In this document: piece by piece, positions 8,896 through 45,215 of the stretch
Layout: each line of letters opens with the position of its first letter
How positions within the stretch are numbered: the stretch's first letter is position 1
Source: an uncultured Acidobacteriota bacterium
GTDB taxonomy: Bacteria; Acidobacteriota; UBA6911; RPQK01; JAPXNP01
Assembly (NCBI GenBank): GCA_963777605.1
Contig: CAVZRV010000007.1
Coordinates: 960,001-1,024,000 of the forward strand
DNA: 64,000 nt
Direction of reading: 5' to 3'
Translations under genes and position numbers: made by a program
The notes under the pieces: generated by a model
The model's database searches: none
What the model was told of the DNA's origin: nothing
The model's input: the letters and a program-made list of their open reading frames with translations, nothing else

Positions 8896-8995
8896 TGCAA
8901 AACTGTTGATGTTGGGGGTCGCGGTGAAGAGAGAGAGTGGAAGCGCCAGTTCAATCGCCGCGTCTTTTGGAGTTGAGGGGGAGAGCGCGATAAAC

Positions 8996-10327: not shown

Positions 10328-10366
10328 GGTGGGGACGTTCACAATCAAAAGGGGTGAGGAGCGATT

Positions 10367-11473
10367 ATGGATCTGACGATTCGCAAGGGCGAGTTACTGA
10401 AAGAACTCCAGTATGTCCAGGGGGTCGTTGAGCGAAAAGCTACCGTCCCCATCCTCACCAACCTGCTGCTCGAAACGACGGGCAATGCCCTTTCCATCAC
10501 CGCCACCGATCTGGATGTGACGCTCCGCTGCACGAGTCGGGCGGACGTCAAGGTGGCGGGGGCCTTCACGGTATCCGCCCGGAAGATGTTCGACATCGTC
10601 AGGTTGCTCCCGGAAGCCGACGTCCACTTGAAAGCCAGCACGTCCGAATGGCTGAACGTGACTTGCCAGCGGTCCAAGTTCAAAGTCGCGGGATTGTCAA
10701 AAGAGAACTTTCCCGAGATCCCTTCCGTCAAAGGCGAGACAGTCAAGTTGCCGGGGCGGGCCCTGCGGGTCATGATCCCGCGATGTGTTTTTGCGATAAC
10801 GCAGGAGGAATCCCGATACACCCTGAACGGAGCTCTTCTGATTGTAAAGCCGACCGGGCTGACGTTCGTCACGACCGACGGTCACCGGTTGGCTCTCCTG
10901 GCGCATCCGTGTGAGATCAGCGACGCGGTTTCCGAAAGCCGGGTCCTGGTTCCCAAGAAGACGCTGGTGGAGCTGAACAAGTTGACGGCCGAAGATGTAG
11001 AGTCGGTGACGTTCGGATTTTCCGAGAACCACCTCTTTTTCAAGGTGGCGGATAGACTGCTGGTTTCGCGCATTCTGAGCGGGCAGTTCCCGAACTTTGA
11101 GATGGTCATCCCCCGCGAAAACAACCGTCAACTGCGGGCGCAGACAGGTGAGCTCTCCAATGCCCTACGCCGGGCCTGCGTCATGGCGGACGAGCAGTCT
11201 CGAGCCGTGCGCTTCAGCCTGAAAGAAGGCACGCTCGAGCTATCGGCGGCAAGCGCCGACTACGGAGAATCGTCCGAAAGCGTCAATGTCGCCTATTCGG
11301 ACGAGCCCATGGAAATCGGCTTCAATGCTCAGTACATGCTCGACTTCCTGAATACGCTCGATGTCGATCAGGTTGATCTCTGGGTCAAGGACAAGGAAAC
11401 GCAGGGCTTGATGAAACCGGTCGATAACGACGACTTTGAATACAGCTATGTGATCATGCCCATGAAAATCTAG
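10367..11473 (+). CDS. dnaN: DNA polymerase III beta clamp
   Basis: ATDLD, TTDGHRL, IGFNAQY, VIMPM. Confidence 0.97.
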   Translation: MDLTIRKGELLKELQYVQGVVERKATVPILTNLLLETTGNALSITATDLDVTLRCTSRADVKVAGAFTVSARKMFDIVRLLPEADVHLKASTSEWLNVTCQRSKFKVAGLSKENFPEIPSVKGETVKLPGRALRVMIPRCVFAITQEESRYTLNGALLIVKPTGLTFVTTDGHRLALLAHPCEISDAVSESRVLVPKKTLVELNKLTAEDVESVTFGFSENHLFFKVADRLLVSRILSGQFPNFEMVIPRENNRQLRAQTGELSNALRRACVMADEQSRAVRFSLKEGTLELSAASADYGESSESVNVAYSDEPMEIGFNAQYMLDFLNTLDVDQVDLWVKDKETQGLMKPVDNDDFEYSYVIMPMKI

Positions 11474-11544
11474 CGGCCCAATTCTGCCTGCCGCGGCCGG
11501 AGACGGCCGCCCCGTCGGGGACCGCCTTTCAGTTCACCCATCTG

Positions 11545-11553
11545 TGTTACAAT
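11545..11553 (+). promoter_or_regulatory. Extended -10 promoter candidate for the gyrB transcript
   Basis: TGnTACAAT. Confidence 0.45.
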
Positions 11554-11559
11554 TCAAGA

Positions 11560-14319
<2,760 letters not shown>

Positions 14320-14344
14320 TTTTCAATCTGCTGAGTGCCCCAAC

Positions 14345-16807
14345 ATGGACAACCTTTCGAGAGAATTGCCAGTCAACATCGAAGAGGAGATGAAATCCTC
14401 TTACCTCGACTACGCCATGTCCGTCATCATCGGACGCGCGTTGCCCGACGTTCGGGACGGCCTGAAACCGGTTCACCGCCGGGTTCTCTACGCGATGAGA
14501 GACTTAGGCAACGTGCACAACAAGCCGCACAAGAAGTCGGCCCGCGTTGTCGGCGAAGTCATCGGCAAGTACCATCCTCACGGAGAATCCGCTGTTTACG
14601 ACACGATTGTCCGGATGGCGCAGGAGTTTTCCATGCGGATGCCCCTCGTAGACGGACAGGGAAATTTCGGCTCGATCGACGGGGACTCGGCGGCGGCCAT
14701 GCGTTACACCGAAGTCCGGATGTCACGGCTGGCCGAGCAGCTTTTGATCGATATCGACAAAGAGACGGTCGATTTCCAGCCCAACTATGACGAGTCCCTG
14801 GTGGAACCGTTGGTCCTTCCGACCCGGGTGCCCAACCTGCTCGTCAACGGAACTTCCGGGATCGCTGTCGGGATGGCAACCAATATTCCGCCCCACAATC
14901 TGGGAGAAGTCGTCGATGCACTGTTGTTGATCCTCGACAACCCAGGGGCGGGGATGCGCGAGATCCTTCCGATCATTCCTGGGCCGGATTTCCCGACGGC
15001 CGGCTTTATTCACGGTCGACAGGGGATCGTTCAGGCCTACGGAACCGGTCGCGGCGTGGTTCACATGCGAGCGAAGGCTGACTTCGAGGACATGGGCCAG
15101 CGTATCGCGATCATCGTGGAAGAGCTGCCGTATCAGGTCAACAAGGCAAAGCTCATCGAACGAATTGCCCAATTGGTTCACGATAAGCGGATCGACGGTA
15201 TCAGCGACCTGCGTGACGAATCTAGTCGCGAAGGGATGCGCATCGTGATCGAGCTGAAGCGGGACGCGGTTCCCGAGATCGTGCTCAACTACCTCTATAA
15301 GCTGACTCCAATGCAGTCGTCTTTTGGGGTCATTCTCCTGGCAATCGTGGACGGGCAGCCCCGGGTCATGACCTTAAAGGAGATCCTGGTCCTATTTCTC
15401 GAACACCGGAAGGAAGTTGTCCGGCGCAGGGCTGCCTTCGAACTGACCAAGGCAGAGCAGCGCGCCCATATTCTCGAAGGACTGAAAAAGGCCCTCGATT
15501 ATCTCGATGAAATCATTACGTTGATTCGGGCGTCATCATCCCCTGCAGAGGCCAGGGAGCAACTGATTTCCCGGCTGGAGTTTACCGAGCCGCAGGCCCA
15601 GGCGATTCTGGAAATGCGCTTGCAGCGACTGACCGGCCTGGAGAGGGAGAAGATCATTGAGGAGTACGGAAGTCTGCTCAAGGAGATCGCCCGACTCCGA
15701 GAGATCCTGTCAGACGATAAGGCATTGAAGAATGTAATCCGGGAGGAGCTTCAACAGATAGGTTCCACCTTCGCGAGCCCGCGGAGGACCGTTATCCTGG
15801 ATCAGCAGGCGGACCTTACCATAGAGGACCTGATCGCCGAAGAGAACGTTGTGATCACGACCACCCGGAACGGCTATGTCAAGCGCACCGCGCTGGACGT
15901 TTACAAGAGCCAGGCCCGTGGTGGAAAGGGGCGACGGGGCATGACGACGGCCACCGAACAGGACATCATTGACGATCTCTTCGTGGCTTGGACGCACAGT
16001 TACCTGCTGATTTTCACCAACAAGGGACGGGCCTACTGGCTGAAGGTCTATGAGATACCCAACGTGGGGGCGGCTGGCCGGGGTAAACCGATCATCAACC
16101 TGATCAACATCGCCAAGGATGAGCAGATCGCCGACATCATTTCAGTGGACAGCTTTGACGATGCCCGCTTCGTGATGATGGCTTCCCGCCAGGGTTATGT
16201 AAAGAAGACCGAGCTGAAGGCATTCTCGAATCCCCGGTCCGCAGGGATCATTGCCTGCGGTGTTGATGAAGGGGATGAACTCCTCAAGGTGGAACTGGCT
16301 TCGGTCGGGGATCACGTCCTTCTTTCGACCCACGGAGGCTACTCGATCCGGTTCTCCGAACAGGACGTTCGGGCAATGGGCCGAACGGCACGGGGAGTGA
16401 AGGGACTCACCCTCAGGCAAGGTGACGGACTGGTCAGTATGTGCCTGTTGTCGGATGAAACGGGAGACGTTCTGGCGGTCACGCAAAACGGATACGGGAA
16501 GCGGACTCCCCTTTCCGAGTATCGTCTCCAGCACCGGGGCGGCCTCGGGATCATCAACATCAAGACGACCAAACGCAACGGGCAGGTCTCTGGAGTGGCC
16601 CATGTGACCAGCGAAGGTGATCTGATTCTAATTACGGAACAGGGCAAGATCATCCGGCTGCCGGTCATGCAGGCACGCCGGACGGCGGCGCGGAGCACCC
16701 TCGGAGTGAAACTGATCGACGTTGACGAAGACGATCAGGTTTCCGACATCACTGTCGTCCCACCCGAGGAAGAGGAAGTCGAGGATGAGGCTGGCGCCGA
16801 AAATTGA
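14345..16807 (+). CDS. gyrA: DNA gyrase subunit A
   Basis: [21 protein letters not shown], GyrA box QARGGKG. Confidence 0.98.
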
Positions 16808-30651: not shown

Positions 30652-30801
30652 CCTGCCACAGGAGGTGATCGCCCCGGTCTCAGCCGGAGGACATCTCGGT
30701 GACATACTTCCCAACAAAGTGGACAATTCGGGTTGGTAGTCTGGTGTGTCCCCCGTCTTGGGAGTGCTAAAGAAGCGGCAGCTTCGTTCGATAATAGTGG
30801 A

Positions 30802-32301
30802 GTGACCGATCACCGACCATCGACAACCGCACACGAAATCAAGACGCTCATTCTGTCGTTCCAACCAGTCATCGCTGTCGAGACCCTGGAAGAAGAGCGG
30901 GTGGACCAGATTCTCGAGAACGTGGCGCAGCAGCTTCGGTTACCTTTGTTTGAGTGGACGGTGACACGCGGCTTGCGGCGCCGGGAACAACCCACCCCGT
31001 TTCATGGAACCAGCCAGCCGCTGATTCTGCTCAAGCACATCGCAGGGTTGACCATCGAGGCGATTTTCCACCTCAAGGATTTCGGCCCTCATCTGGAGGG
31101 TGCTGAGGTCAGACGCCAGTTTCGTGAATTGGCGGGTGCGTTTTCGGGGAAGAAATCGACCTTGGTGATCAGCGGGGGAACGGTGGAGTTTCCGCCCGAT
31201 CTCAATCATCTGGCGATCCACTACCGGTTGAGATTTCCTTCCCGCGACGAACTGAGGGCGGCCGTCCGGGAGCAGTTGCAGGACCTTCGGACCCAACGCT
31301 CGTTTCAAATCGAACTCGGGCCTGACGGCCTGGAAGAGTTGCTCCGTGCCCTCAGAGGGCTCACCCTGAAACAGGCACGACAGGTGCTAGCTTACTGCAT
31401 ACTCGACGACGGCAGGCTCGGAGCCGACGATATCGGCCGGATTATTGAGCGAAAGGGAGAAGCCATTCGGGAACAGGGCCTTCTCGAATACTATCCGGTC
31501 TCCTCGAACGAGTACGAACTCGGCGGATTCAAGTCGCTGCGGGGATGGCTCGATCGAGCGAAGGTCGGCTTCAGTAAAAAAGCCCGGGAGCTCAACCTCA
31601 GTCCCCCCAAAGGCGTTCTGCTCGTGGGAGTCCAGGGTTGCGGCAAGTCACTGGCGGCAAAATTCGTAGCCAAACAGTGGCGGCTTCCCCTGCTGAAGCT
31701 GGACGCCGGCTGCCTCTTCGATAAGTACGTGGGCGAATCCGAGAAGAATTTTCGCCGAGCCACGGGGCAGGCGGAATCGATGGCACCAGTGGTTCTCTGG
31801 ATCGACGAGATCGAGAAGAGTTTTGCCTCAGGTGGAGCCGGAGATGCCGACGGTGGCCTGGGGAAGCGAATCCTGGGCGCGTTCCTGACCTGGTTGCAGG
31901 AAAAGAATGACGAAGTATTCGTGGTCGCAACTGCGAACGATCTGTCGGCGCTGCCCCCGGAACTGCTTCGCAAAGGGCGCTTCGACGAGATCTTTTTTGT
32001 AGACCTTCCGGAACTGGCGGAACGCGCCAGTATTTTCAAGATTCATCTTGCGTTGAGAAACCAGTCGCCCGGAAACTTCGAATTGACCAGGCTTGCGGCG
32101 GAAACAGGGGGGTTCAGTGGAGCCGAGATCGAGCAGATCGTCATCACAGCGCTTTACCGGGCGCTCCACAACCAGTCAGCCCTCACGACCGAGAGCCTCA
32201 TCCAGGAAGCTCACTCGACAATTCCACTGTCAGTTTCGCGCCGCGAAGAAATAGAAGAACTCCGGACTTGGGCGCGACAGCGATTTGTCAGCGCCAATTA
32301 G
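30802..32301 (+). CDS. Ycf46-like AAA+ ATPase
   Basis: Degenerate N-terminal AAA; GVQGCGKS, LWIDEIEK, PPELLRKGRFDEIFFVDLP. Confidence 0.88.
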   Translation: MTDHRPSTTAHEIKTLILSFQPVIAVETLEEERVDQILENVAQQLRLPLFEWTVTRGLRRREQPTPFHGTSQPLILLKHIAGLTIEAIFHLKDFGPHLEGAEVRRQFRELAGAFSGKKSTLVISGGTVEFPPDLNHLAIHYRLRFPSRDELRAAVREQLQDLRTQRSFQIELGPDGLEELLRALRGLTLKQARQVLAYCILDDGRLGADDIGRIIERKGEAIREQGLLEYYPVSSNEYELGGFKSLRGWLDRAKVGFSKKARELNLSPPKGVLLVGVQGCGKSLAAKFVAKQWRLPLLKLDAGCLFDKYVGESEKNFRRATGQAESMAPVVLWIDEIEKSFASGGAGDADGGLGKRILGAFLTWLQEKNDEVFVVATANDLSALPPELLRKGRFDEIFFVDLPELAERASIFKIHLALRNQSPGNFELTRLAAETGGFSGAEIEQIVITALYRALHNQSALTTESLIQEAHSTIPLSVSRREEIEELRTWARQRFVSAN

Positions 32302-32683
32302 GTTCCAGTCCCCAGGACCGGCCGGCTCAAACAGCAGAGGCCGGTGAACCGGGTGTCACCTCCTACCGCTCGGAGTTTGTCGAATTGATGTGCAGCCTGT
32401 CCAGATGGTGACTTTCTTTCTTCCCGGAACGGAAGATCCAGACGATCACAGCAGCGACAATAACAATGCCGATAATCAACGAGTAAGTCATCTATTGGCC
32501 TCCTAACCTTGACTTCTGCCAGCACCATTCCGGTCCGAGCTTTGAGCAGCCGCAATCACAGGAGATCGAACTTAGACGACCGGTCTTTCCCAATCACCTC
32601 AGCCGTGCCATCGTGAATTGACTTGATTCAATTCTATCTGCGGGTTGTGAAAAAAGGCAACTCAAAAGCAACTTCAGTTCGAC

Positions 32684-32917
32684 CGTTTAATTTCTCTACA
32701 AGTGTGGTCTTTCTCAGCCATTCGGGCCCAGAACCCAAGCAGGGCGGGCTTTTGAGCCCTTGACAGGCAGGAGTGCGACCGGGAGTTGTAGAAGCCTTCA
32801 ACAGTCACCAAAAGGACAAGTGTTGCAAAATCTCCCCAATGGTACTGGGAAACTGTTTAAAATCAGTAGGTTCTAGATGTTGTTTGGGATTTCAAGTCGA
32901 TTGGCGACAGACGTGCA
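32684..32917 (+). promoter_or_regulatory. Sigma54-dependent promoter with candidate enhancer and IHF sites
   Basis: TGGCGACAGACGTGCA (GG-N10-GC, 32902-32917); AATCAGTAGGTT (32861-32872); 17-bp imperfect palindromes at 32787-32803 and 32684-32700. Confidence 0.6.
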
Positions 32918-32929
32918 TTTACTAATGGC

Positions 32930-33700
32930 GTGAAACAAGGATCAGTTCCAACATGTATTTGGATGGACGCGGGGCTCATCTCCTATCGGCTGTGTGACCG
33001 GAATCTGGATTGTGACAACTGTCTTTTCGACCGGGTGATGAGAGGAAAGACCGAGGGACTGGAGCAATTGATTCAGCCCTCGATGCCAAAGGTGGTTCGC
33101 GGGCCGCGGTTCCTGCCTGGATTCGGGTTTGATCCTCGGTGCTTCTACTCGAGAAATCACTTGTGGTTCCGGGTTGAAGAGAAAGCAAACCTGAAGATCG
33201 GCCTCGATCACTTCGGAAGCCAGCTGTTGGGAGCCATCAGCGCGGTGGAAACGCCTGAAGAAGGCACTGAACTTAACGCCTTCACGCCGATTCGCATTTC
33301 CAACGAACTCGGAGAAGTCGAGTTGGTGTCGCCCGTCTCGGGAAGGGTGGTATGGAACAACCCTGATCCCCGCCGAACTCCTTCTCTGGTCTCCGACGAC
33401 CCCTACGACCGGGGGAGCATGATCACGGTTGAATCCGACGATCTTACCGGAAGCCTCAAAAGCCTCCATTTTGGAAGGTCGGCTGAGGTCTGGCTCCAGC
33501 ACGAGGTCGAACAATTGGCGGGAGACGTGATTGCCTTGGCGTTTAAGGAGCATCCCACCGTCGGAACGACCGCGACGGATGGCGGAGAGGTGATTGCAAA
33601 TTACCTCGCAGTTATTCGGCGACAGGAGAGTTTTCGGACAGTGCTGAAGAGATTCTTCGGGGCAGTCCCCGTTAAAAAGGGTGGCTCAAAATGGTATTAG
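32930..33700 (+). CDS. GcvH-like protein without lipoyl-Lys, N-terminal Cys4 domain
   Basis: YSRNHLW, IGLDHF, SPVSGRV, DPYDRG resemble H-protein; C9/C22/C28/C31 N-terminal motif. Confidence 0.8.
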   Translation: MKQGSVPTCIWMDAGLISYRLCDRNLDCDNCLFDRVMRGKTEGLEQLIQPSMPKVVRGPRFLPGFGFDPRCFYSRNHLWFRVEEKANLKIGLDHFGSQLLGAISAVETPEEGTELNAFTPIRISNELGEVELVSPVSGRVVWNNPDPRRTPSLVSDDPYDRGSMITVESDDLTGSLKSLHFGRSAEVWLQHEVEQLAGDVIALAFKEHPTVGTTATDGGEVIANYLAVIRRQESFRTVLKRFFGAVPVKKGGSKWY

Positions 33701-34357
33701 TAATGGTTTTCTTAACCGTAGTCTGTTCTATCGCGACAGTTGAAACCGTTGCCTGGCTCAGGCGGCGACGCGAGCTTCAGGAATCAGCTCAACGGTCCAC
33801 TGAACCTGTGATTGGGGAGGTGTACTGGCATCCGGGCCACGCCTGGCTTCGTGTGCTTTCCAGAGAGCGGGCGGCGATCGGGATCGACGGTTTCGCCCTT
33901 AGACTGCTAGGGAGAGTTGACGAAGTTCGTTTGCCCGAGCCGGGGACCCGGGTCCGCCAGGACGAACCTTTTGCTTCGGTTCGCCAAGGGTCTCGGTGGG
34001 TACGGTTCGCCTCGCCGGTAGACGGAACGATCGACGAAGTTAACCCTCAGGGTGTGAAAGATGGCCGTGACGGAGAAGAACGTTACGAGAAGGGATGGCT
34101 GTGCCGGTTGCAGGCTTCCGACCTGAGAGAGATGCCGGCGGGTTTGATCGGCGCACACGACATCCGTGACTGGATGGCGCGCCAGGTCCAAACCGTGATG
34201 GACTTCTTCGCGCAGAGATCGGCAGGTCCCGCAGCTCCAGCCCATGATTCCCGACGGCGGAACGCTCGTGGACGGCCTTCTGGAGCAGGCCGACGATGAA
34301 ACTTGGGCACAACTGACGCAGCGCCTGTTCGAAGCCTCCTCACGGAAGGAACGTTGA
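33691..34357 (+). CDS. Membrane-anchored GcvH-like protein without lipoyl-Lys, apparent +1 frameshift near 34225-34245
   Basis: N-terminal TM; YWHPGHAW, IGIDGF, SPVDGTI, YEKGWL; +1 frame continues MIPDGG...W...F to TGA 34357. Confidence 0.78.
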
Positions 34358-34563
34358 AACTTGGGCGCCGGACTCCCGGCGCCTTCTGTCGAAGAAACCA
34401 TCCTTATAGTTGAATAATCCTGCAATACTCGGTCAATATCAGCTTACCGCTGCAACAAAATTCTTTTTGCTTCTGGACGATGGCTTGCTATCTTGTAAGG
34501 TGGTCGGTCCATGGGAGGCCGACGTGTCCCCGCCAGCCTAACCGGGGAAAGAGGTGGTGAGCT

Positions 34564-36201
34564 TTGACTGGGCGTCTGAGTCTTCGACTCATCCTGAGCC
34601 TCATTGCGATTCTCGGGATCATTTTCACGCTGTTTGGATACCTGGTTACCGAGCTGCATCGGCGTGACCTCGAGAGCGTCAATTCCGAAGCTGCCGATCG
34701 CATCAGCGACTCGATCAAGCGCAGCATTCTGTACAGCATGCAGCTTAATCACCGGGAGCATATCTACCAGACCATCAAGACAATAGGCGGTGAACCGGGA
34801 ATCAACAAAGTTCGAATCTTCAACGAGATCGGCAGGATCAGCTTTTCGAGTGATGATGCCGAGATCAATCGGATGGTCGACAAGCGAGAAGAGGCCTGCT
34901 ATGGCTGCCACAACCAGGAGGAGCCCCTGCGGCGGCTGGAGCGACCTGACCGTCACCGGATATTCTACGACGCCCAGGGAAACCGGATCCTTGGGGTCAT
35001 CAATGCGATTGAAAACGAACCGAGCTGCTGGGAAGCGGACTGTCACGCGCACATCCCGGAGCAGGCCATTCTCGGTGTGCTCGATGTGACGGTTTCGCTG
35101 GCACACGTCGACGAAATCACCCGGCGGGGGCGCAACCTGATGCTGATCCAGTTGGGGATCGCGGTTCTGGGGGTGTCGATCCTGCTTGGGATGCTGGTTT
35201 GGAATTTCGTCGATCGCCCAATTCGACAGTTAATGGTTGGGACGGAGAAGATCGCCTCCGGAGACCTGGACTATCGAATTCAGGTCAACACCAGCGACGA
35301 AATGGGATCTCTCAGTGAATCATTCAACCGGATGACCCGCCAACTCGACCAGGCCCGGGCCGAGGTGAACGCATGGACGCAGACCCTCGAGGCGAGGGTG
35401 GAGGAGAAGACAGCAGAACTGAAGCGGGCCCACGATCAGATGATGCAGGTGGAGCGCATGGCGTCGATGGGGAAACTGGCTGCCATCGTGGCCCATGAAA
35501 TCAATAATCCGCTGGCGGGTATTCTGACCTCGACCCGGCTGATTCTGAAGCGGATTGACCGAAAGGCGATCGAACTGAAAGACGACAGCCGGGAGCATCT
35601 CGAAATGATCGCTGACGAGACAAGCCGGTGCGGTTCCATCGTCAAGAACCTGCTGCAGTTTGCGCGGCCCACCAGCAAGAACCGCGAACCCGAAGACATC
35701 AACAACGTAATTCGCGAGTCATTGAGGCTCGTCCAGCACAAGATCAACCTCATGAGCGTGGAAACCCAGTTAGAACTGTCGGATGATGTGCCCCCGGTTG
35801 TCTGTGACGCCCAGGGGATCAAGCAGTCATTGCTCGCGATTCTGATCAATGCGTGCGAAGCGGTCGGAGACTCCGGGGGAGAAATCGAATTAGGGTCGGA
35901 TTTCCTTCCGCAGGAAGACCGGGTTTGTATCTGGGTTCGGGACAACGGTCACGGGATGGACGAACAGACCCGGCAGCGAATTTTCGAGCCCTTTTTTACA
36001 ACGAAAGAAGAAGTACGCGGCGTCGGCCTGGGGATGGCTGTGGTGAGCGGAATCGTTAGCGCTCACGGCGGAACCGTCGACGTGGAATCGGAAATTGGCC
36101 GGGGAACCACGATCAGGATCTACCTTCCCGCACAGGTTCCGGACCAGATTGGGGTGGTCGCCGATGAAGTGCGGGACGAGAGGAGAGAGAGCGACGCATG
36201 A
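34564..36201 (+). CDS. Sensor histidine kinase with periplasmic c-type heme motifs and HAMP domain
   Basis: Two TMs; CYGCH and CWEADCH; AHEINNPL; DNGHG; FEPFFTTK; GLGM. Confidence 0.92.
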   Translation: MTGRLSLRLILSLIAILGIIFTLFGYLVTELHRRDLESVNSEAADRISDSIKRSILYSMQLNHREHIYQTIKTIGGEPGINKVRIFNEIGRISFSSDDAEINRMVDKREEACYGCHNQEEPLRRLERPDRHRIFYDAQGNRILGVINAIENEPSCWEADCHAHIPEQAILGVLDVTVSLAHVDEITRRGRNLMLIQLGIAVLGVSILLGMLVWNFVDRPIRQLMVGTEKIASGDLDYRIQVNTSDEMGSLSESFNRMTRQLDQARAEVNAWTQTLEARVEEKTAELKRAHDQMMQVERMASMGKLAAIVAHEINNPLAGILTSTRLILKRIDRKAIELKDDSREHLEMIADETSRCGSIVKNLLQFARPTSKNREPEDINNVIRESLRLVQHKINLMSVETQLELSDDVPPVVCDAQGIKQSLLAILINACEAVGDSGGEIELGSDFLPQEDRVCIWVRDNGHGMDEQTRQRIFEPFFTTKEEVRGVGLGMAVVSGIVSAHGGTVDVESEIGRGTTIRIYLPAQVPDQIGVVADEVRDERRESDA

Positions 36202-37565
36202 TAGCCAAGTCCGTTGCACGGGTATTGGTGGTAGACGACGAACTCGCCGTACGCAAGTCACTGGGGGGCTGGCTTCGGGAGGAAGGATACGAGGTCGATG
36301 TCGCCGGCTCTGGGAAGGAGGCCCTCGAGGCGCTCAGTCGAAACGACTGGGATGTCTTCCTGGTAGACATCAAGATGCCCGGGATCGACGGCCTTGAGCT
36401 CCAACGGCGGATCCAGGAGATCCACCCCGATTCCACGATCATCATCATGACGGCCTATGCCTCGGTGGACACAGCCGTCGAGGCGATGAAACAGGGAGCG
36501 TATGACTATGTCGTCAAGCCTTTCGAGCCGGAAGCCCTGGAGAACCTGATTCGGAAGGCGGCCGAACGGAAGCAGCTGCTCGATCAGAACGTTCAACTGC
36601 GGGCGAAGATTGACGAGATGAGTGCCTTCCATGGGATTGTCGGGCAAAGCGGGGTGATTCGCCGGGTGCTCGAGGAGATCAAACTGGTGGCCGAGTCGGA
36701 CACCACGGTCCTGGTTCGGGGGGAAAGCGGAACCGGAAAGGAGCTGGTGGCCCGGGCCATCCATGCGTGCAGTCCGAGAAGGTATTTGCCCATTGTGACG
36801 GTCAGCTGCGGGGCACTTGCGGAAGGAGTCCTGGAGAGCGAATTGTTTGGACACGAAAAGGGTGCGTTTACAGGGGCGCAGTACCGGCGCAAGGGCAAGT
36901 TCGAGATGGCGGACGGAGGGTCCCTGTTCCTCGACGAGGTCGGTGACATCTCCCTCAAGACCCAGGTTGACCTCCTTCGGGTGCTGGAACACAAGGAGGT
37001 TTGCCGGGTTGGGGGGAACAAGATGGTACCCGTCGATTTCCGATTGATCACGGCGACCAACAAGAATCTGGAGAACATGGTGCAGGAGGAAACCTTCCGG
37101 GAGGATCTCTACTATCGCCTGAACGTTTTTGCGATTACACTTCCGCCCCTCCGGGAGCGACGGGACGACATTCCCCTTCTGGTCGATCACTTTCTGCGGA
37201 AGTTTGCCCGCAGCATGAACAAACCTGTGGGGAGTGTTAACAATGAAGCACTCTCCATTCTCTCCTCCTATAACTGGCCCGGGAATATCCGAGAGCTGCA
37301 GAACGCTATCGAGCGCGCGGTCCTGGTGTGCCGGGGCGCTGCCATCGAAGCGGAGCATGTCCCGCTTCTGAAAAATGAGAAGGACCGAACGCTCGATGAC
37401 AAGTCACTCGCATCAATTGAGAAGGACCATATCGAAGCCATTTTGGGCGAGACTGACTGGAACATCTCTCGGAGTGCCAGAGTCCTGGGGATCGACCGGG
37501 TCACCCTTTATAACAAGATTAAGAAATATGGGCTGAAGCGAGAAGATTCAGCCACCAACAACTAA
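36198..37565 (+). CDS. Sigma54-dependent response regulator (NtrC/AtoC family)
   Basis: REC (VVDD, DIKMP); GESGTGKE; GAFTGA; WPGNIREL; Fis-type HTH. Confidence 0.95.
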   Translation: MIAKSVARVLVVDDELAVRKSLGGWLREEGYEVDVAGSGKEALEALSRNDWDVFLVDIKMPGIDGLELQRRIQEIHPDSTIIIMTAYASVDTAVEAMKQGAYDYVVKPFEPEALENLIRKAAERKQLLDQNVQLRAKIDEMSAFHGIVGQSGVIRRVLEEIKLVAESDTTVLVRGESGTGKELVARAIHACSPRRYLPIVTVSCGALAEGVLESELFGHEKGAFTGAQYRRKGKFEMADGGSLFLDEVGDISLKTQVDLLRVLEHKEVCRVGGNKMVPVDFRLITATNKNLENMVQEETFREDLYYRLNVFAITLPPLRERRDDIPLLVDHFLRKFARSMNKPVGSVNNEALSILSSYNWPGNIRELQNAIERAVLVCRGAAIEAEHVPLLKNEKDRTLDDKSLASIEKDHIEAILGETDWNISRSARVLGIDRVTLYNKIKKYGLKREDSATNN

Positions 37566-38134
37566 TGAATCAAATCCGGCTGGTCGGGGTCGGGAGCCCG
37601 GACGTCGATGTTCTTGAGTTTCTCTCGCTCACCCTTGGTGAGAGTCTCCCTCAGCCTTGCCTGGTGGATGGAGTCCGCTTTGACGTATCGGAGGCCTTCG
37701 AGGTGTCTCGGAGTCAATACTTTTCCACCCGGATCGTTTCGGACCTGCTGAACTACTCCGGCGGATATCCTCGGGCCAAGGTGCTTGGAATTACCGACGT
37801 TGATTTGTTCATTCCGATTCTTACCTTTGTCTTCGGGGAAGCCCAGCTCGGAGGGCCGGTCGGCCTGGTTTCAACCCATCGTTTAAGGCAGGAGTTCTAC
37901 GGTCTTCCTGAAGATCGAGGCATCTTTCTGGAGCGGGTGGAAAAAGAGGCCTTGCACGAGCTTGGGCATACCTTCGGACTGGTCCACTGTCATCGACCCG
38001 GGTGCGTGATGGGCTTCTCGAACGCGGTGGAGAAGGTCGACCTGAAGACAAATACCTATTGTTCCGAGTGTCGGATCACCGCCGGGTTGGAAAAGACCGC
38101 CTCGGAGTTCATCCGAAGCCCGGAAAGCATTTGA
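37565..38134 (+). CDS. Archaemetzincin-family (M54) Zn metalloprotease
   Basis: FVFGEA, KEALHELGHTFGLVHC, CVM Met-turn, C-terminal CxxC. Confidence 0.9.
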   Translation: MNQIRLVGVGSPDVDVLEFLSLTLGESLPQPCLVDGVRFDVSEAFEVSRSQYFSTRIVSDLLNYSGGYPRAKVLGITDVDLFIPILTFVFGEAQLGGPVGLVSTHRLRQEFYGLPEDRGIFLERVEKEALHELGHTFGLVHCHRPGCVMGFSNAVEKVDLKTNTYCSECRITAGLEKTASEFIRSPESI

Positions 38135-38142
38135 GGTCCCAG

Positions 38143-38520
38143 CGTGGTACGGCCGTCCCGGCCGTGACCGGGATTTCTTGTCTTCCGCGGAGCACAGGCG
38201 AGAAGCCTGTGACACGGCCGTCCCGGCCGTGACCTTGGAGTTCCTCCGCTGTTCTCCCATGGTCACAGGCGGGAAGCCTGCTGACACGGCCGTCCCGGCC
38301 GTGACCTTGGAGTTCCTCCCCTGTTCTCCCATGGTAACAGGCGAGAAGCCTGTGACACGGCCGTCCCGGCCGTGACCTTGGAGTTCCTCCGCTGTTCTCC
38401 CATGGTCACAGGCGAGAAGCCTGTGACACGGCCGTCCCGGCCGTGACCTTGATTCCAGTCTTCTGTTTTCCGTGGCCACAGGCGAGGACGCCTGTGGCAC
38501 AGCCGTCCCGGATGGGACGG
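38143..38520. repeat. Left tandem REP/REPIN-like array (about 71-bp period, 5 units plus a degenerate end)
   Basis: ACGGCCGTCCCGGCCGT at 38149, 38214, 38286, 38357 and 38428, degenerate at about 38499, alternating with CACAGGCGAGAAGCCTGTG-type palindromes. Confidence 0.92.
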
Positions 38521-38557
38521 ACGCGTAGATTTTGGAGTGACGAGCGTTATTCCTGGT

Positions 38558-39184
38558 ATGGAGTTCAAACCTCTGTCTTCAGACCAAATCATTCGCCGTT
38601 ACCGCCGGAATCTCCCCCACTGGCGAGCAGCGGGCGCAACCTATTTCATCACCTTTCGGACAGCCGATTCGTTACCCTCAAGCAGGTTGCCCCAGATCGA
38701 GGAGCAACGTCGACTCTGGCTCCAGTTTCATCCCCCTCCGTGGTCGGCCGCAGAATATGCCGAGTTTCAACGGTTTCGATTCCGGACCTTGGACCGGTGG
38801 CTCGATCAGGGATTGGGGGCATGTGCATTGAGGGATCCTCGACTGGCCCGCGAAGTAGAGGAGACGCTTCGATTCTACGACGGCCGACGCTATGTATTGG
38901 ACGAATTCTCGGTCATGCCGAACCACGTTCACGCCCTGGTTCTTCCGATTGAAGCGTGGGAAATCGAGACCATCCTGCAGAGCTGGAAGTCCTTTTCCGC
39001 CCATTCTGTCAACGAGCTCCTCGATCGTTCCGGAACCTTCTGGCTTGACGAAACCTACGATCACATCGTGCGCTCGGTCGAGGAACTGGAGAGGACGCGA
39101 GCGTACATCAGGAACAATCCGAAGAGTGCCCGCCTTTCCGCGGGAACCTACCGAGTCAGCTGCGGCAGTGGGATCGAAACCTGA
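38558..39184 (+). mobile_element. REP-associated tyrosine transposase (RAYT, HUH Y1 family)
   Basis: RRNLPHW, YFITF, MPNHVH (HUH), YDHIVR, YIRNNP; flanked by palindromic repeats. Confidence 0.9.
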
Positions 39185-39192
39185 TCCATCGC

Positions 39193-39396
39193 GTGGTCAG
39201 GCCGTGACCGGGATTTCTTGTCTTCCGCGGAGCACAGGCGAGACGCCTGTGACACGGCCGTCCCGGCCGTGACCTTGAGTTCCGTCCCCTGTTCTCCCAT
39301 GGCCACAGGCGAGGACGCCTGTGGCACGGCCGTCCCGGCCGTGACCTTGGATTCCTCTTCTGTTTTCCGTGGCCACAGGCGGGACGCCTGTGACAC
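39193..39396. repeat. Right REP/REPIN-like array (3 units)
   Basis: Same palindromes and same linker order as the left array. Confidence 0.92.
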
Positions 39397-41544: not shown

Positions 41545-42906
41545 CTATCTTCGGACGTTCAGCCAAGTCTCGTAGCTGTTCACCTCGACAGGTTCCTGTT
41601 CCTCCTTTGGAACGCCGAGATACTCGGCCACGGACGGAACCAGCTTCGAGTACCAAATGGTCGCGTTTACAGTCACCTTGCCTTCCGGTATCGATTCAGG
41701 CAGGCGGAAAGTGTAGGTTTCGCTGACCGCTTTCAAAGGCGCAAGCCGATAATCGGGCCCGAGTTTTGCGGTGTGCCACTGGGCGATCGTCATGCGGCCT
41801 TCAGGATCAATGTAGGGAAGGCGGAAGATACGGTCTCCCTCGGGAACGCCGCCGTCGCGCAGGAGGCCCTTGAAATCGGCCAGACCCTTGATGTCCCCGA
41901 TATCCTGGTAGGCCAGCGCCGATGCGGATGCAATCGTCAACTCCTCTCCCTCAAAGCCCTTGGCATCGACGGGAAGGTGGTAGACGTTGCCGGCGGAATC
42001 GCGGGCTTCGACGTGGAGCCAGAGCAGGCGCTCCTCCGCGGAACCGCTGGGAACCATGTGCCCGGCCTTCGCGTTGACCACCACCGCGGTTACCTTCACT
42101 TCATCGCCCGGGCCGGCTTCGCGCACGGAGGGATGCGCCCGGACTTCTGCGACGCCGCGCAGTTTTCCGTCGTCATGCGCGCCATGGAAGAGGTGCTGAC
42201 GGACGTTGGGTCTATCCTTGCCCATTCCGGGGGCGCTGTTACCGGCGGCCGGCGGCATGTGGCAATCCTGGCAAACGATCCCGGCCTTGGCATGAGGGCT
42301 CTCTTTCCACTCCAGTTGGGTTGACTTCACCCAAACCCCGTAGGGATCCTTTTCATTGTGGCAGGTGCCGCAGAACTCGGTCGTCCGCAAGAACGGGTTG
42401 TCCTTAATCTTGTGAACCGGACTTTCATCATCCGAGTGAATACCCTGCTTGACGTCGCCCGGGGATATCACATAGTTGAAGTTAAAAGGAACATCCCCTT
42501 TGAACCCGGTGATGCTGTGACAGACTTCGCAGGAGACACTTTCGTTAGCCCGGGTTCCTTCTGCAGGACGGCTCGGCGGGATGTCTCCGGCGAGGAAGGC
42601 CAGCGGCGCATGACAGCCGTTGCAGCCGGCCTTGATTCCTGCCACCTTTTCCAGTTTCAGGCTGTGCGGCAGAGCCAATTCGAAGTACTCGATCTCATCC
42701 CAGGGGTGCGTGAAGCACTGAGACATCATGGCCTGTTCGTGCTGAAAGGTCAGGTCGACGTGGCACGAGGCGCAGGCGTCCGGCTCCTGGAAGCGCTCGT
42801 AGGGAACGGTGCCCATCGCTTCGTCACCGACCTTCTGGGCCCAAATCGGGCCACATAATACCAGAGCGATCGCCGCGGCGGCGGCGTATCTTGCGGATCT
42901 CATCAT
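41545..42906 (-). CDS. Periplasmic pentaheme c-type cytochrome
   Basis: Signal peptide; CASCH, CNGCH, CEVCH, CGTCH, CQDCH. Confidence 0.9.
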   Translation of the reverse strand: MMRSARYAAAAAIALVLCGPIWAQKVGDEAMGTVPYERFQEPDACASCHVDLTFQHEQAMMSQCFTHPWDEIEYFELALPHSLKLEKVAGIKAGCNGCHAPLAFLAGDIPPSRPAEGTRANESVSCEVCHSITGFKGDVPFNFNYVISPGDVKQGIHSDDESPVHKIKDNPFLRTTEFCGTCHNEKDPYGVWVKSTQLEWKESPHAKAGIVCQDCHMPPAAGNSAPGMGKDRPNVRQHLFHGAHDDGKLRGVAEVRAHPSVREAGPGDEVKVTAVVVNAKAGHMVPSGSAEERLLWLHVEARDSAGNVYHLPVDAKGFEGEELTIASASALAYQDIGDIKGLADFKGLLRDGGVPEGDRIFRLPYIDPEGRMTIAQWHTAKLGPDYRLAPLKAVSETYTFRLPESIPEGKVTVNATIWYSKLVPSVAEYLGVPKEEQEPVEVNSYETWLNVRR

Positions 42907-42952: not shown

Positions 42953-45215
42953 CTATTTTGTGGCCCGCCCCAGTTCCTGCGCATCAACCACAGCGATGGC
43001 AGCCATGTTGACAATGTCCTTCGCCTCGAATCCGTGCTGGAGGACATGGACCGGCTTCTTCATCCCGACCAGGATCGGCCCGATCGCTTCGGCACCCCCA
43101 AGGCGCTGAAGCAGCTTGTAAGCGATATTTGCCGACTGAAGGTCGGGGAAGATGAGGACGTTGGCCGATTTGGTCAGGCTACTGAACGAGTAGTGTTTCT
43201 CGATGAGGTCGTGAAATACGGCGGTGTCGGCCTGCATTTCACCGTCGATCATCAGATCAGGCGCCTTCTGCTTGACCAGTCGGGTTGCCTCCCGGACCTT
43301 GTCAACAAGCGGATGGCGGACACTGCCGAAGTTCGAAAAGGAAAGCATGGCGACTCTGGGTTCCACGTTGAAGCGGCGAGCCACTTCGGCCGTCAGAATG
43401 GCGATTTCGGCCAGTTCCGGTGCCGTGGGATCGATGTTGACCGTGGTGTCGGCGAAAAAGTAGGTGTGGTCCTTGAGGACCATCATGAACAGGCCCACGA
43501 CTCGACTGCAGTCTTCCCGGGTCTGGATGATCTGCAGCGCCGGTCGGAGGGTGTCGGGATAATGCTGGCTGATACCGCAGACAAGGGCGTCTGCGTCCCC
43601 CTGCTGGACCATCATTGCGCCGAACACGGTCTTGTTTTTGAGCATGCGCCGGGCATCGGTCAGCGTGACACCCTTTCGTTCACGCAGTTTGAAAAGGGCC
43701 TCGGCATATTGTTCGGCCTTCTCGGGAGGCATCCGGGTCAACAATTTCGATATCGCTGAGCCGCAATTCGTGCTGCAGAATCAGTTCCTGCATTCGGTCA
43801 TTGCGTCCCAGCAGAACGGGCTGGGCGAATTTCTCGTCGACGATGATCTGGCTCGCCCGGAGCACCGTCTCGTGTTCCCCTTCCGGAAAAACCACCCGCT
43901 TGGGGTCTCGGCGCGCCTGGTTGATCATGAGCCGCATGACTTCGCGGGATCTCCCGAGCCGTCGCTCGAGGTCCTCCCGGTATTGTTCGATATCGATCGT
44001 GCGGCGGGCAACGCCGGTTCTCATAGCCGCTTCGGCAACAGCGGCGGATTCGACGATGAGAACGCGATGGTCGAACGGCTTGGGGATCAGGTAGTCCGGG
44101 CCAAAATGAAGCCGCTCAATCCCGTATGCTTTCGTCACCGACTCGGGTACATCCTCGCGGGCCAATGAAGCCAGGGCGTGGGTCGCCGCGAGCTTCATTT
44201 CCTCATTGATCGCGGTTGCCCGTACATCCAGGGCGCCACGGAAAATGAACGGAAATCCGAGGACGTTGTTAACCTGGTTCGGGTAATCGGAACGACCCGT
44301 TGCCATGATGGTGTCGGGTCGTGCCGTCATTGCCTCTTCGTAGGTGATTTCCGGGTCAGGGTTGGCCAGGGCAAAAACGATCGGGCGCTCGTTCATGGTC
44401 CGGAGCATTTCGCCGGTCACGCAGTTCGCGATGGACAACCCGACAAAGACATCCGCCCCCTTCAGGGCTTCTGAAAGCGTTCGGGCGTCGGTGTCGTTGG
44501 CCAGCGCCTCCTTGTACGGGTTCATCCCAACGGTACGACCGCGGAAAACGGTCCCCTTCGAGTCGCAAAGGATCAGGTTCTCGGGGCGAACACCAAGAGA
44601 GATGTAGTACTTGGCACAGGCGATTCCGCTCGCACCCGCTCCATTGAATACCACGCGGACGTCCTCAATCGGTTTGCCCGCAATCTCCAGGGCATTCAAG
44701 AGAGCTGCTCCCGAGATAATGGCGGTCCCGTGCTGATCGTCGTGGAAAACGGGGATAGTGAGGAGTTCCTTCAGGCGTTCTTCAATGCGAAAACATTCCG
44801 GCGCCTTGATGTCTTCCAGGTTAATTCCTCCAAAAGTTGGCTCCAACAGCTGGACGGTCCGGATGATCTCCTCGGGGTCCAGACTGTTGAGCTCGATGTC
44901 GAAGACGTCGATGTCTGCAAATCTCTTGAAGAGAACAGCCTTCCCTTCCATGACCGGCTTCCCTGCAGCCGGACCGATATCCCCCAGCCCGAGCACCGCT
45001 GTTCCGTTGGAAATGACGGCAACCAGGTTGCCCTTGGCGGTATATTCGAATACATCATCGGGGTTTTCGTGGATCTTGAGGCAGGGAACGGCTACTCCCG
45101 GCGTGTACGCCAGAGAGAGGTCCCTCTGTGTTAAACAGGGTTTACTCGCAGTGACTTCAATCTTTCCCTTGCGACCCTCGCTGTGGTATTCGAGGGCTTC
45201 CTTTTCCCTGATCAT
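42953..45215 (-). CDS. maeB: NADP-dependent malic enzyme with PTA-like domain, apparent +1 frameshift near 43722-43735
   Basis: [36 protein letters not shown]; C-part DGEMQAD, IGPILVG. Confidence 0.95.

Follow-up and report, generated by a model that had tools for sequence, protein, structure and literature searches.

The locus described here raises the question of whether two genes resembling that of the glycine cleavage H-protein (GcvH), arranged next to genes for a sensor histidine kinase, a sigma-54 regulator and an archaemetzincin, belong to one functional unit, and which role GcvH-like proteins may play in such a unit. In the following, the window denotes the whole stretch of DNA analyzed (64 kb).

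Gene arrangement and conservation of the locus

According to the ORF list of the window, five ORFs on the + strand, named A, B, HK, RR and M54, occupy positions 32930-38134 (Table 1). Their coordinates bear out the claim of an earlier note on this DNA of five co-oriented genes with overlaps, namely of 10 nt (A/B), 4 nt (HK/RR) and 1 nt (RR/M54). In a consensus scan, the stretch separating B from HK contained no terminator-like hairpin, in agreement with a single long transcript. Furthermore, a Pfam scan of 48 ORFs of the window detected no member of the GCV_T, GDC-P, lipoate-ligase, sirtuin or macrodomain families, so that the claimed absence of glycine-cleavage partner, lipoate-ligase and sirtuin/macrodomain genes holds for these ORFs.

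Table 1. Positions of the genes and putative control elements of the locus within the 64-kb window.
Feature	Position	Strand	Basis
Palindrome TGTAGAAGCCTTCAACA, candidate upstream activator site of RR	32787..32803		Exact TGTNG-N7-CNACA match
Weak sigma-54-type -24/-12 element TGGCGACAGACGTGCA	32902..32917	+	Best candidate; GG and GC kept, 3 mismatches
Gene A, soluble protein of 256 aa: Cys4 module, GcvH-fold core without lipoyl lysine, C-terminal helical extension with DGG loop	32930..33700	+	Pfam GCV_H, structure model
Gene B as the ORF stands, 202 aa: N-terminal membrane helix, GcvH-fold core without lipoyl lysine, tail out of frame	33691..34299	+	Pfam GCV_H
Displaced 3' part of B in the next reading frame, conserved C-terminal DGG module	34235..34354	+	tblastn and three-frame translation
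HK, sensor histidine kinase, 545 aa: membrane helix, periplasmic PAS/Cache-like domain with CxxCH and Cx4CH, membrane helix, HAMP, HisKA, HATPase_c	34564..36201	+	Pfam, structure model
RR, NtrC-type sigma-54 activator/response regulator, 455 aa	36198..37565	+	Response_reg, Sigma54_activat, AAA_lid_14, HTH_8
M54, archaemetzincin zinc protease, 189 aa; start overlaps the RR stop codon	37565..38134	+	NF033823, motif
Terminator-like hairpin 3' of the M54 gene, function putative	38155..38174	+	Consensus match alone

For comparison, 597 matching stretches were collected, yielding 577 confirmed relatives, of which the best 80 loci were considered. Since all 80 loci were picked for containing an A-type gene, the frequencies reported below are conditional on A and biased towards its closest kin. 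Neighbouring genes were taken as raw ORFs and assigned by phmmer matches to the window proteins. Forty of the loci provided at least 6 kb on both sides and are referred to as the full-flank set.

The complete trio of HK, RR and M54 was found in 31 of these 40 full-flank loci (singly: HK 34, RR 35 and M54 32), and a second GcvH-like gene was present in 38. Among the 9 loci with an incomplete trio, five (L038, L050, L061, L066 and L070) encode none of the three proteins within 8 kb, L059 is devoid of M54, L007 and L034 stop at or just past the regulator, and the kinase of L009 is fragmented. At least nine phylum-level labels are represented among the related loci. Hence, the neighbourhood comparison that the earlier note had proposed revealed co-occurrence of lysine-less GcvH-like genes with a kinase, a sigma-54 regulator and an M54 gene across phyla. 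Judged from gene neighbourhoods, the gene set is a real co-conserved unit in many phyla. The module is common in the anaerobe-rich phyla Desulfobacterota, Acidobacteriota, Bacteroidota, Ignavibacteriota and Gemmatimonadota.

GcvH-fold proteins A and B

Both A and B match the Pfam family GCV_H (E-values of 7.8e-14 and 8.3e-16, respectively), and the structure model of A (pLDDT 88.7) adopts the barrel-sandwich H-protein fold, as deduced from a Foldseek match to E. coli GcvH 3a8i_E (E 1.2e-9, target-normalised TM-score 0.89, rmsd 1.5 Å over 124 columns). Relatives are named 'glycine cleavage system H protein' in public sources. These observations would be expected if A and B represented ordinary lipoate-carrying H-proteins, of the glycine cleavage, sulfur-oxidising sHdr/LbpA or ADP-ribosylated GcvH-L type, that became chance neighbours of an unrelated two-component system. 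However, their scores against the gcvH equivalog model TIGR00527, 59.6 bits for A and 56.8 bits for B, are far below the cut-off of 115.85. Moreover, the lipoyl lysine, defined as the hairpin lysine eight residues before a conserved Pro, is missing from both proteins: in A, Gly or a gap stands opposite the lysine of E. coli GcvH, and in B, Ser stands opposite that of the pea H-protein. Across 81 A-type sequences, this position is not a conserved lysine, and lysine occupies exactly this column in only 2 of 36 B-type sequences. The lack of lipoyl attachment claimed for the A/B pair thus agrees with the alignments. Considering also the lack of lipoate-ligase, sirtuin, macrodomain and gcvT/P genes among the window ORFs and the conserved linkage to kinase, regulator and protease across phyla, an ordinary H-protein function is extremely improbable.

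Protein A differs from a plain H-protein by an N-terminal Cys4 module (C9, C22, C28 and C31), which is invariant in 81 sequences and whose motif was found in 139 of 151 relatives. No match to this module was obtained in Pfam, PDB or Atlas, and none to the C-terminal extension in Pfam, the database compared. From its sequence, the invariant Cys4 module appears fit for a metal or Fe-S site, which supports the earlier idea of a metal/Fe-S role for an H-fold protein. Furthermore, the whole A module is fused to HisKA in 14 of 95 hits, 13 of which also possess HATPase_c. Cys4 and DGG are kept in all 14 fusions, which belong to one clade and whose A parts are 59-100% identical. This occurrence of the A module on a kinase core in one clade points to a sensor role for A, but the fusion does not prove contact in trans.

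Protein B shares the hydrophobic N-terminus that is typical of B-type proteins; its reading frame in the window is disrupted. Residues 2-173 of the B protein encoded by the related locus L001 align to window positions 33685-34200 in a single frame, and residues 186-218 match 34235-34333 in the following frame (frame 2) with 70% identity (tblastn). Accordingly, the frame change falls between 34200 and 34235, and the shifted frame would close at 34354, so that the apparent 264-nt gap before HK partly holds the displaced end of B. The frameshift is absent from the account given in the earlier note. Since the displaced end contains no stop codon and is still 70% identical to its L001 counterpart, a recent change or a sequencing error is suggested. 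A malic-enzyme/PTA gene at 42953-45215 in the window is also split by a frame change, which hints at indel errors in the assembly.

The genes adjoining the GcvH-like genes in related loci offer another explanation for A and B. In 26 of the 40 full-flank loci, NrfC-like/NrfD-like genes separate or flank the GcvH-like genes, and each of these loci also encodes a B-type protein (26/26). An NrfCD gene lies within 150 nt of B in 30 of 42 loci. In addition, multihaem c3/c7 cytochromes adjoin the module in L036, L059 and L074. The closeness to NrfD-type complexes mentioned in the earlier note therefore applies to the relatives, but not to the window, where no NrfCD gene was found anywhere in the 64 kb. 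Accordingly, the GcvH-like proteins might be subunits with a structural or assembly role in a quinone-interacting respiratory complex of the NrfCD type, i.e., the metabolic output of a two-component system that merely regulates this complex; A and B of the window would then be leftovers of a lost complex, to which the membrane anchor and the frameshift of B would be suited. However, A/B or A/A pairs occur without NrfCD in 14 of the 40 full-flank loci, e.g., in Desulfobacterales-type loci and in L001 and L002 with an intact B, and only 10 of 44 loci have an NrfCD gene that abuts A. The A-kinase fusions likewise do not agree well with a purely structural function of A in respiration; for B, such a function is still plausible. 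Overall, this explanation is regarded as unlikely, albeit worthy of consideration.

Sensor kinase, regulator, control region and protease

Two predicted membrane helices of the kinase HK enclose the motifs CYGCH (residue 112) and CWEADCH (residue 155), in line with the haem-type sensor kinase claimed before. Neither CxxCH nor Cx4CH varies in any of the 46 kinases compared (that of the window and 45 from related loci), and the H-box histidine H311 of the HAMP/HisKA/HATPase_c part is conserved in an alignment of 37 kinases. In the structure model (pLDDT 82.1), the periplasmic part shows a PAS/Cache-like secondary-structure layout, in which a five-stranded sheet follows a long N-terminal helix and CXXCH is located in an insert. 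No Pfam family, DUF3365 included, significantly matched the sensor part; its best match, Mcp40H-20_sensor (15.9 bits, E 0.017), remained below the cut-off of 27, placing HK outside both the sCache_haem (DUF3365/Tll0287) and the Geobacter Mcp40H families. Covalent haem attachment and redox sensing by HK are predicted.

The regulator RR combines a receiver, an AAA+ and a Fis-type HTH domain as known for NtrC-type activators (Response_reg 1.5e-32, Sigma54_activat 2.4e-68 and HTH_8 3e-14 in Pfam) and features GAFTGA at residue 222, which was recovered by exact string in only 43 of 56 regulators. Cut-offs of the named NCBIfam equivalogs (AtoC, ZraR, NtrC and others) were not reached by RR.

Upstream of A, the + strand contains no match to TGGCAC-N5-TTGCW with up to 2 mismatches. 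The best candidate, TGGCGACAGACGTGCA, ends 13 nt before the GTG start of A and is conserved in place in the two relatives L001 and L002; by a rough estimate, a match with 3 mismatches would arise by chance about once in four regions of such size. Since A starts 14-16 nt after the GC of this element, its mRNA would be nearly leaderless, and a near-leaderless GTG start is unusual. In related loci (1.03 Mb in total), 11 of the 16 perfect TGGCAC-N5-TTGCW matches are followed by a GcvH-like ORF at a distance of up to 120 nt, compared to 0.16 expected; with up to one mismatch, this applies to 20 of 52 matches, compared to 0.52 expected. The sigma-54-type promoter claimed for the locus is hence well represented in the relatives, but only by a weak candidate element in the window itself. 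The palindrome TGTAGAAGCCTTCAACA, located 99 nt upstream of TGGCGACAGACGTGCA, is the sole exact copy of TGTNG-N7-CNACA in the window. Among the best 80 of 577 relatives, 41 of 64 exact matches to this pattern, which was derived by eye from 20 upstream regions representing a subset of the loci then used for counting, lie up to 300 nt upstream of a GcvH-like ORF compared to 2.9 expected.

Given the frameshifted B gene and the absence of NrfCD, the system may be undergoing partial decay in this genome; alternatively, the sequence may contain indel errors. Together with the three promoter mismatches, the frame break at 34200-34235 and the lack of NrfCD within 64 kb would be compatible with a locus that is partly non-functional, with B as a pseudogene and a weak promoter left over from ancestors harbouring the full NrfCD-linked system. 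However, A, HK, RR and M54 are intact and possess all conserved residues, and L001 and L002 share the reduced layout of the window while their B genes are intact. The stop-free displaced end of B and the second frame-split gene likewise speak for a recent change or for assembly errors, and decay of the module is considered quite unlikely.

Archaemetzincins occur in archaea, bacteria and mammals, and abstracts on the family describe their biological role as little known. The M54 protein of the window scored 154.4 bits against NCBIfam NF033823, i.e., above the cut-off of 145, and exhibits the motif HELGHTFGLVHC...C.M...CSEC, corresponding to the extended archaemetzincin motif HEXXHXXGXXHCX4CXM...CXXC (PMC3427221). 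HExxH...H is kept in all 52 M54 copies of neighbour loci and the full motif in 42 of them, the other 10 deviating by the missing Gly alone. In the best 80 of 577 relatives, the M54 gene accompanies the regulator gene in 51 of 57 loci; its start overlaps or adjoins that gene, the median gap being 5 nt. A link of the archaemetzincin family to a two-component system was not found in the literature searched. The putative role of M54 in protein turnover, as assumed in the earlier note, is deduced from gene adjacency, and its tight linkage to one signalling module in multiple phyla provides a short list of candidate substrates, namely A, B and the regulator.

Proposed circuit and relation to known systems

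Based on genome interpretation, the region is proposed, with a probability of roughly 0.5, to encode one instance of a widespread two-component redox circuit that depends on sigma-54, with A as the putative cytoplasmic sensor input. Via two covalent c-haems in its PAS/Cache-like domain, the kinase would sense either the redox state of the periplasm or a haem ligand, e.g., NO, and subsequently phosphorylate the regulator. The latter would bind the palindrome and open the sigma-54 promoter directly before A. The resulting transcript would span A and B and probably continue through HK, RR and M54 to the hairpin at 38155, leading to positive autoregulation. Protein A, with a metal or an Fe-S cluster bound by its Cys4 module, would feed a second, cytoplasmic signal into the kinase. 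B is interpreted as its membrane-tethered paralogue, which in most genomes, but not here, is encoded beside an NrfCD-like quinone module. As the least supported step, M54 may be a dedicated protease resetting the circuit by cutting A/B or the regulator. The contacts between the proteins of the module assumed in this scheme are likewise predicted. Since the module is common in anaerobe-rich phyla and often accompanied by NrfCD-like modules and multihaem cytochromes, it may control the tuning of respiration to redox potential, as does BccR in Geobacter.

A more far-reaching and doubtful extension of the proposed circuit is that the Cys4, GcvH-fold and DGG module represents a new class of cytoplasmic Fe-S/metal redox-sensor input domain for histidine kinases, acting in trans or in fused form, and that the archaemetzincin is its dedicated processing protease, which would cut the flexible, nearly invariant DGG loop common to A and B and thereby switch or reset signalling. 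If true, the M54 family would thereby gain its first physiological substrate. While H-proteins are known to carry their cofactor on a swinging arm, the fold found here lacks this arm, is combined with a Cys4 module and in some cases forms part of a kinase; it would constitute a new sensory domain. Moreover, no family model covers the periplasmic domain of the kinase with its two haem motifs. The module thus provides a testable approach to a possible new sensor domain and to archaemetzincin function.

Among known systems, GcvH, LbpA of sHdr sulfur oxidation and GcvH-L share the fold of A, the model of which also matches GcvH-L (PDB 5a35, E 6.1e-5). In contrast to these lipoylated proteins as described, A and B do not possess the lipoyl lysine and reside in a different gene context; they additionally feature an N-terminal Cys4 module (A) or membrane helix (B) and the C-terminal helical DGG extension. 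The family model and the extended motif relate the window M54 protein to the archaemetzincins described, i.e., AmzA of Methanopyrus kandleri, AMZ-tk and human AMZ1/2, whereas it differs in being bacterial and translationally coupled to a sigma-54 regulator gene.

E. coli ZraS/ZraR works with the periplasmic accessory protein ZraP. Similar in its logic to the module, this system combines a sigma-54 two-component pair with a small neighbouring accessory gene, which is under sigma-54 control and exerts feedback on signalling, and the cytoplasmic part of HK matches ZraS (PDB 9jfj, Foldseek). The best NCBIfam matches were AtoS (232 bits) and ZraS (175 bits) for HK, and AtoC (463 bits) and ZraR (445 bits) for RR; all four remain far short of the respective equivalog cut-offs (646, 479, 714 and 760 bits), so that the window pair is not orthologous to these proteins. 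Furthermore, the accessory proteins of the module exhibit a GcvH fold and are cytoplasmic or membrane-tethered, in contrast to periplasmic ZraP, its kinase differs from those of ZraS/ZraR and AtoS/AtoC by the haem motifs, and a protease gene is attached to the module.

Regarding haem-c periplasmic sensor domains, the PAS-like sensors of Geobacter GSU0582/GSU0935 and the sCache_haem (DUF3365/Tll0287) family have been reported (PMC12889525); HK resembles them in the helix-plus-sheet layout of its periplasmic domain with CXXCH in an insert. As described, these sensors carry one motif, whereas HK has two (CxxCH and Cx4CH). The literature searched yielded no description of the module, in agreement with the earlier note, which named no functional characterisation. 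Judged by published descriptions, the nearest characterised analogue is the Geobacter sulfurreducens system in which BccR (GSU0598) and the neighbouring two-component protein GSU0599 with two haem motifs control the cbcBA operon, which is sigma-54-dependent, induced at low redox potential and not induced without bccR (10.1101/2021.04.15.440034; PMC8396549; PMC3831638). As in the module, a regulator composed of REC, sigma-54 AAA+ and HTH domains adjoins a two-component protein with two CX2-4CH c-haem motifs; this likeness of HK/RR to GSU0599/GSU0598 is deduced from published descriptions. The passages on the BccR system make no mention of an M54 gene, and the Geobacter papers call GSU0597 and GSU3489 only hypothetical. 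The first two genes of the target operon, which is transcribed divergently from bccR, encode small 'hypothetical' proteins; the membrane quinone oxidoreductase specified by this operon is CbcBA (cytochromes b and c) rather than NrfCD. In view of this partly characterised analogue, the system is less unprecedented than the earlier note stated.

Gene organization and occurrence of the module

The five genes would constitute a sigma-54-dependent two-component redox circuit, in which A may represent a novel cytoplasmic sensor with the H-protein fold as its scaffold, B a paralogue tethered to the membrane and linked with an NrfCD-like quinone module (NrfC-like dicluster protein plus NrfD-like membrane protein), and M54 the dedicated archaemetzincin of the circuit. 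The signalling frame is of a known kind and the accessory parts are new; the module as such is apparently undescribed. The gene set proposed in the earlier note was recovered as five co-oriented ORFs overlapping by 10 (A/B), 4 (HK/RR) and 1 nt (RR/M54), but the promoter is weak here and a frameshift in B had been missed. Likewise, the families reported as missing from the neighbourhood (glycine-cleavage T or P, lipoate ligase, sirtuin, macrodomain) were absent from all 48 window ORFs scanned with Pfam. Since dnaA, dnaN, gyrB and gyrA follow one another, the window is near the chromosomal replication origin; it also encodes a PFOR-like protein, and outside the module it looks like ordinary chromosome.

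Features of the window and their coordinates
Feature	Position	Strand	Annotation
dnaA-dnaN-gyrB-gyrA	8906-16807	+	
AAA-family ATPase gene	30733-32301	+	Directly upstream of module
42-aa ORF	32366-32491	-	Divergent from A
Palindrome TGTNG-N7-CNACA	32787-32803		99 nt upstream of candidate -24/-12 element
Candidate -24/-12 element	32902-32917		3 mismatches
A	32930-33700	+	Pfam GCV_H
B	33691-34299	+	Pfam GCV_H
Frame change in B (within this interval)	34200-34235		
DGG extension of B	34235-34354		In next frame
Sigma-54-like match before HK (dismissed)	34474-34489		
HK	34564-36201	+	HAMP, HisKA, HATPase_c (Pfam/NCBIfam)
RR	36198-37565	+	Receiver, sigma-54 AAA+, HTH_8 (Pfam/NCBIfam)
M54	37565-38134	+	Archaemetzincin, 154.4 bits (curated cut-off 145)
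Repeat array	38144-38519		
Terminator-like site	38155-38174		After M54
IS200-like Y1 transposase gene	38537-39184	+	Pfam Y1_Tnp, E 1.8e-7
Repeat array	39200-39396		
Multihaem c-type cytochrome gene	41545-42906	-	453 aa
Malic-enzyme gene with C-terminal PTA-like domain	42953-43744 and 43680-45215	-	Two overlapping ORFs, different frames

Relatives of A were found by a plain word-based search in only three cases, and a full HMMER scan returned 2586 cluster representatives at E<=1e-3 and 679 at E<=1e-10. One genome per species was scanned with a 13-sequence alignment; 597 stretches matched and 577 of them code for a relative, the nearest originating from Acidobacteriota genomes (44% identity). 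ORFs were called in the loci of the best 80 of these 577 relatives and matched to the proteins of the window; since every locus was chosen for its A-type gene, all co-occurrence counts are conditional on A. Among the 40 loci from this set with at least 6 kb on either side of A (full-flank loci), the kinase was present in 34, the sigma-54 regulator in 35, M54 in 32, all three together in 31 and a second GcvH-like gene in 38. The nine exceptions to the trio comprise two loci that stop at or just past the regulator (L007, L034), one with a fragmented kinase (L009), one missing M54 (L059) and five missing all three genes (L038, L050, L061, L066, L070). Across the best 80 loci, the regulator was found in 57, in 51 of which M54 lay beside it (median gap 5 nt). 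Phylum labels within this set include Acidobacteriota, Desulfobacterota ('delta proteobacteria'), Bacteroidota, Ignavibacteriota, Gemmatimonadota, Eisenbacteria, Planctomycetota, Nitrospirae and Wallbacteria, among others. The expected co-conservation across taxa was thus observed and, as judged from gene neighbourhoods, the module is real and widespread.

The full archaemetzincin motif occurs in the window's M54 and in 42 of 52 neighbouring copies, the other ten deviating in the glycine only; from gene adjacency alone, we infer a role of this protease in the module.

Further features were recorded around the module. The 42-aa ORF, preceded by an AGGAGG ribosome-binding site, codes for a membrane peptide with a single helix. 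Its position is conserved in L001 and L002, the relatives with a layout like that of the window (~64% identity), and in the related locus L003 (38%), and the remaining loci yielded no copy; the ORF may either be a component of the module as it occurs in this lineage or have no connection with it. The AAA-family ATPase gene is syntenic in L001 (5808-7364) and L002 (5682-7364) with E-values of about 1e-223 to 1e-226, and, as the remaining 78 loci yielded no counterpart, its position probably reflects mere lineage synteny. Downstream, the two repeat arrays consist of units of ~71-72 nt, each with a GTCACAGGCGAGAAGCCTGTGAC-type hairpin, and flank the Y1 transposase gene, an arrangement characteristic of REP elements that surround a REP-associated tyrosine transposase.

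The H-fold proteins A and B

Both proteins score far under the cut-off of the TIGR00527 gcvH equivalog (A 59.6 and B 56.8 bits, cut-off 115.85). In residue-level alignments, the lipoyl lysine of E. coli GcvH lies opposite Gly or a gap in A, and that of the pea H-protein opposite Ser in B, as expected for the non-lipoylated type previously proposed; moreover, lysine is not conserved at this position in 81 A-type and 36 B-type sequences. The known H-like proteins LbpA and GcvH-L are described as lipoylated. The structure model of A is confident (pLDDT 88.7, pTM 0.79), and for the superposition of its core onto E. coli GcvH the target-normalised TM-score is 0.89 and the rmsd 1.5 Å.

To this core, A adds an N-terminal four-cysteine module (Cys4) with all four cysteines invariant (C9-x12-C22-x5-C28-x2-C31) and a C-terminal helical extension, in which a nearly invariant DGG motif sits in a lower-confidence loop of the model. 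The Cys4 motif was present in 139 of 151 relatives of A, and two to four copies of the module occur in some relatives. Because eight of the 12 relatives seemingly devoid of it align from query residue 12 onwards, their gene starts may have been called at an internal Met. Searched alone, the module gave no match in Pfam or Atlas and no significant match among PDB sequences (best: Nab2 zinc finger, E 0.36). B-type proteins share the DGG extension with A, have no Cys4 and carry an N-terminal hydrophobic helix followed by basic residues. A FastTree phylogeny of 158 GcvH-like ORFs required five changes of the A/B label, a number that carries little weight.

In the window, the B ORF ends in an unconserved Arg/Pro/Gly-rich tail and the conserved DGG extension, 70% identical to that of L001, follows in the next frame; a frame change between these segments is therefore indicated by sequence conservation. 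The malic-enzyme gene is split likewise, the PTA_PTB profile being covered at positions 3-75 by one ORF and 74-319 by the other. This second frame change points to indel errors in the sequence or to decay of the gene, and in the case of B an indel error and a true mutation are therefore equally likely.

A search for longer forms of A with the A-family alignment found none, weak evidence that was overturned by a search starting from P0052, a relative in which a complete A module is followed by HisKA and HATPase_c. The A part of this protein retrieved 95 proteins, 14 of which combine GCV_H with HisKA, 13 of them also with HATPase_c. Several sources are represented among these fusions, whose contigs reach 76 kb in length. 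The fusions form one clade (A part 59-100% identical), whose unfused kin are labelled Syntrophales or Syntrophobacteraceae. Cys4 and DGG were kept in all 14, and an H-box motif follows ~52 residues past DGG in 13. Since a complete A module is fused to the kinase domains, the role of A as a putative kinase input is supported, the fusion being no proof of contact in trans.

Two other arrangements were noted: the relative P0244 fuses a GCV_H domain without the Cys4 motif to an AMP-binding (acyl-CoA synthetase-like) enzyme, and in the related locus L018 the A-type gene is immediately followed by an acetyl-CoA-synthetase-like gene.

Kinase sensor and candidate promoter region

CxxCH and Cx4CH motifs were invariant in all 46 kinases compared (the window's and 45 from related loci). 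Both lie in a periplasmic segment flanked by two long helices and predicted to comprise a long helix, a short helix and five strands; judged from this secondary structure alone, the sensor domain may be PAS/Cache-like. No family model matched the sensor part significantly (best: Mcp40H-20_sensor, E 0.017), and Foldseek with the whole kinase model matched cytoplasmic kinase parts only.

Sigma-54-type promoter sequences, as proposed in the earlier note, recur ahead of GcvH-like genes in relatives. Within 1.03 Mb of related loci, 16 perfect TGGCAC-N5-TTGCW matches were detected, 11 of which lie at most 120 nt upstream of a GcvH-like ORF (0.16 expected); the corresponding numbers were 20 of 52 at up to one mismatch and 32 of 201 at up to two. 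However, the window's own candidate is weak, its position and element being kept in L001 and L002. In all three, the start codon of A follows the GC of the -12 element by only 14-16 nt, which implies an unusual, nearly leaderless message. The palindrome TGTNG-N7-CNACA recurs upstream of the sigma-54 promoters of related loci, with 41 of 64 exact matches located at most 300 nt upstream of a GcvH-like ORF (2.9 expected), a count that is partly circular because the motif was derived from 20 of those same regions. The window is an independent case, as it contains its sole exact match in 64 kb ahead of the candidate element. Between B and HK, no terminator-like site was found. A sigma-54-like match before HK was dismissed as chance; it is not kept in L001 or L002.

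Respiratory neighbours and characterized analogues

The NrfD-type complexes mentioned in the earlier note were encountered in relatives but not in the window: a 4Fe-4S dicluster and an NrfD-like membrane protein are encoded between or beside the GcvH-like genes in 26 of 40 full-flank loci (best 80 of 577), and no NrfCD gene was found in the window or in L001 to L003. The dicluster protein matches Fer4_11 and carries a TAT signal in some loci, and the NrfD-like protein has a cytochrome c7 tail in some. All 26 full-flank NrfCD loci contain a B-type gene, and the eight B-less loci are all without NrfCD; furthermore, among the best 80 of 577 loci, an NrfCD gene lies adjacent to B in 30 of 42 and to A in 10 of 44. 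Desulfobacterales-type loci possess two A-type genes in place of A plus B. Multihaem cytochromes are encoded beside the module in some related loci.

In the window, a multihaem c-type cytochrome gene with MtrC/MtrF-like, c7, c552 and NapC/NirT-type matches is located on the opposite strand, 3.4 kb downstream of the module.

No description of this module was found in the literature searched, and the terms 'glycine cleavage', 'GcvH' and 'peptidase' are absent from the D. vulgaris sigma-54 regulome paper (PMC4641369). The nearest characterized analogue, likened by published descriptions and with homology as a lead rather than a result, is that of Geobacter sulfurreducens. There, BccR (GSU0598), a receiver/sigma-54/HTH regulator, is encoded divergently from a sigma-54 operon whose first two genes code for hypothetical proteins and which specifies the quinone oxidoreductase CbcBA; induction of this operon occurs at low redox potential and depends on bccR (10.1101/2021.04.15.440034). 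Moreover, the two-component protein GSU0599 is described as having two haem motifs of the CX2-4CH type (PMC8396549, PMC3831638).
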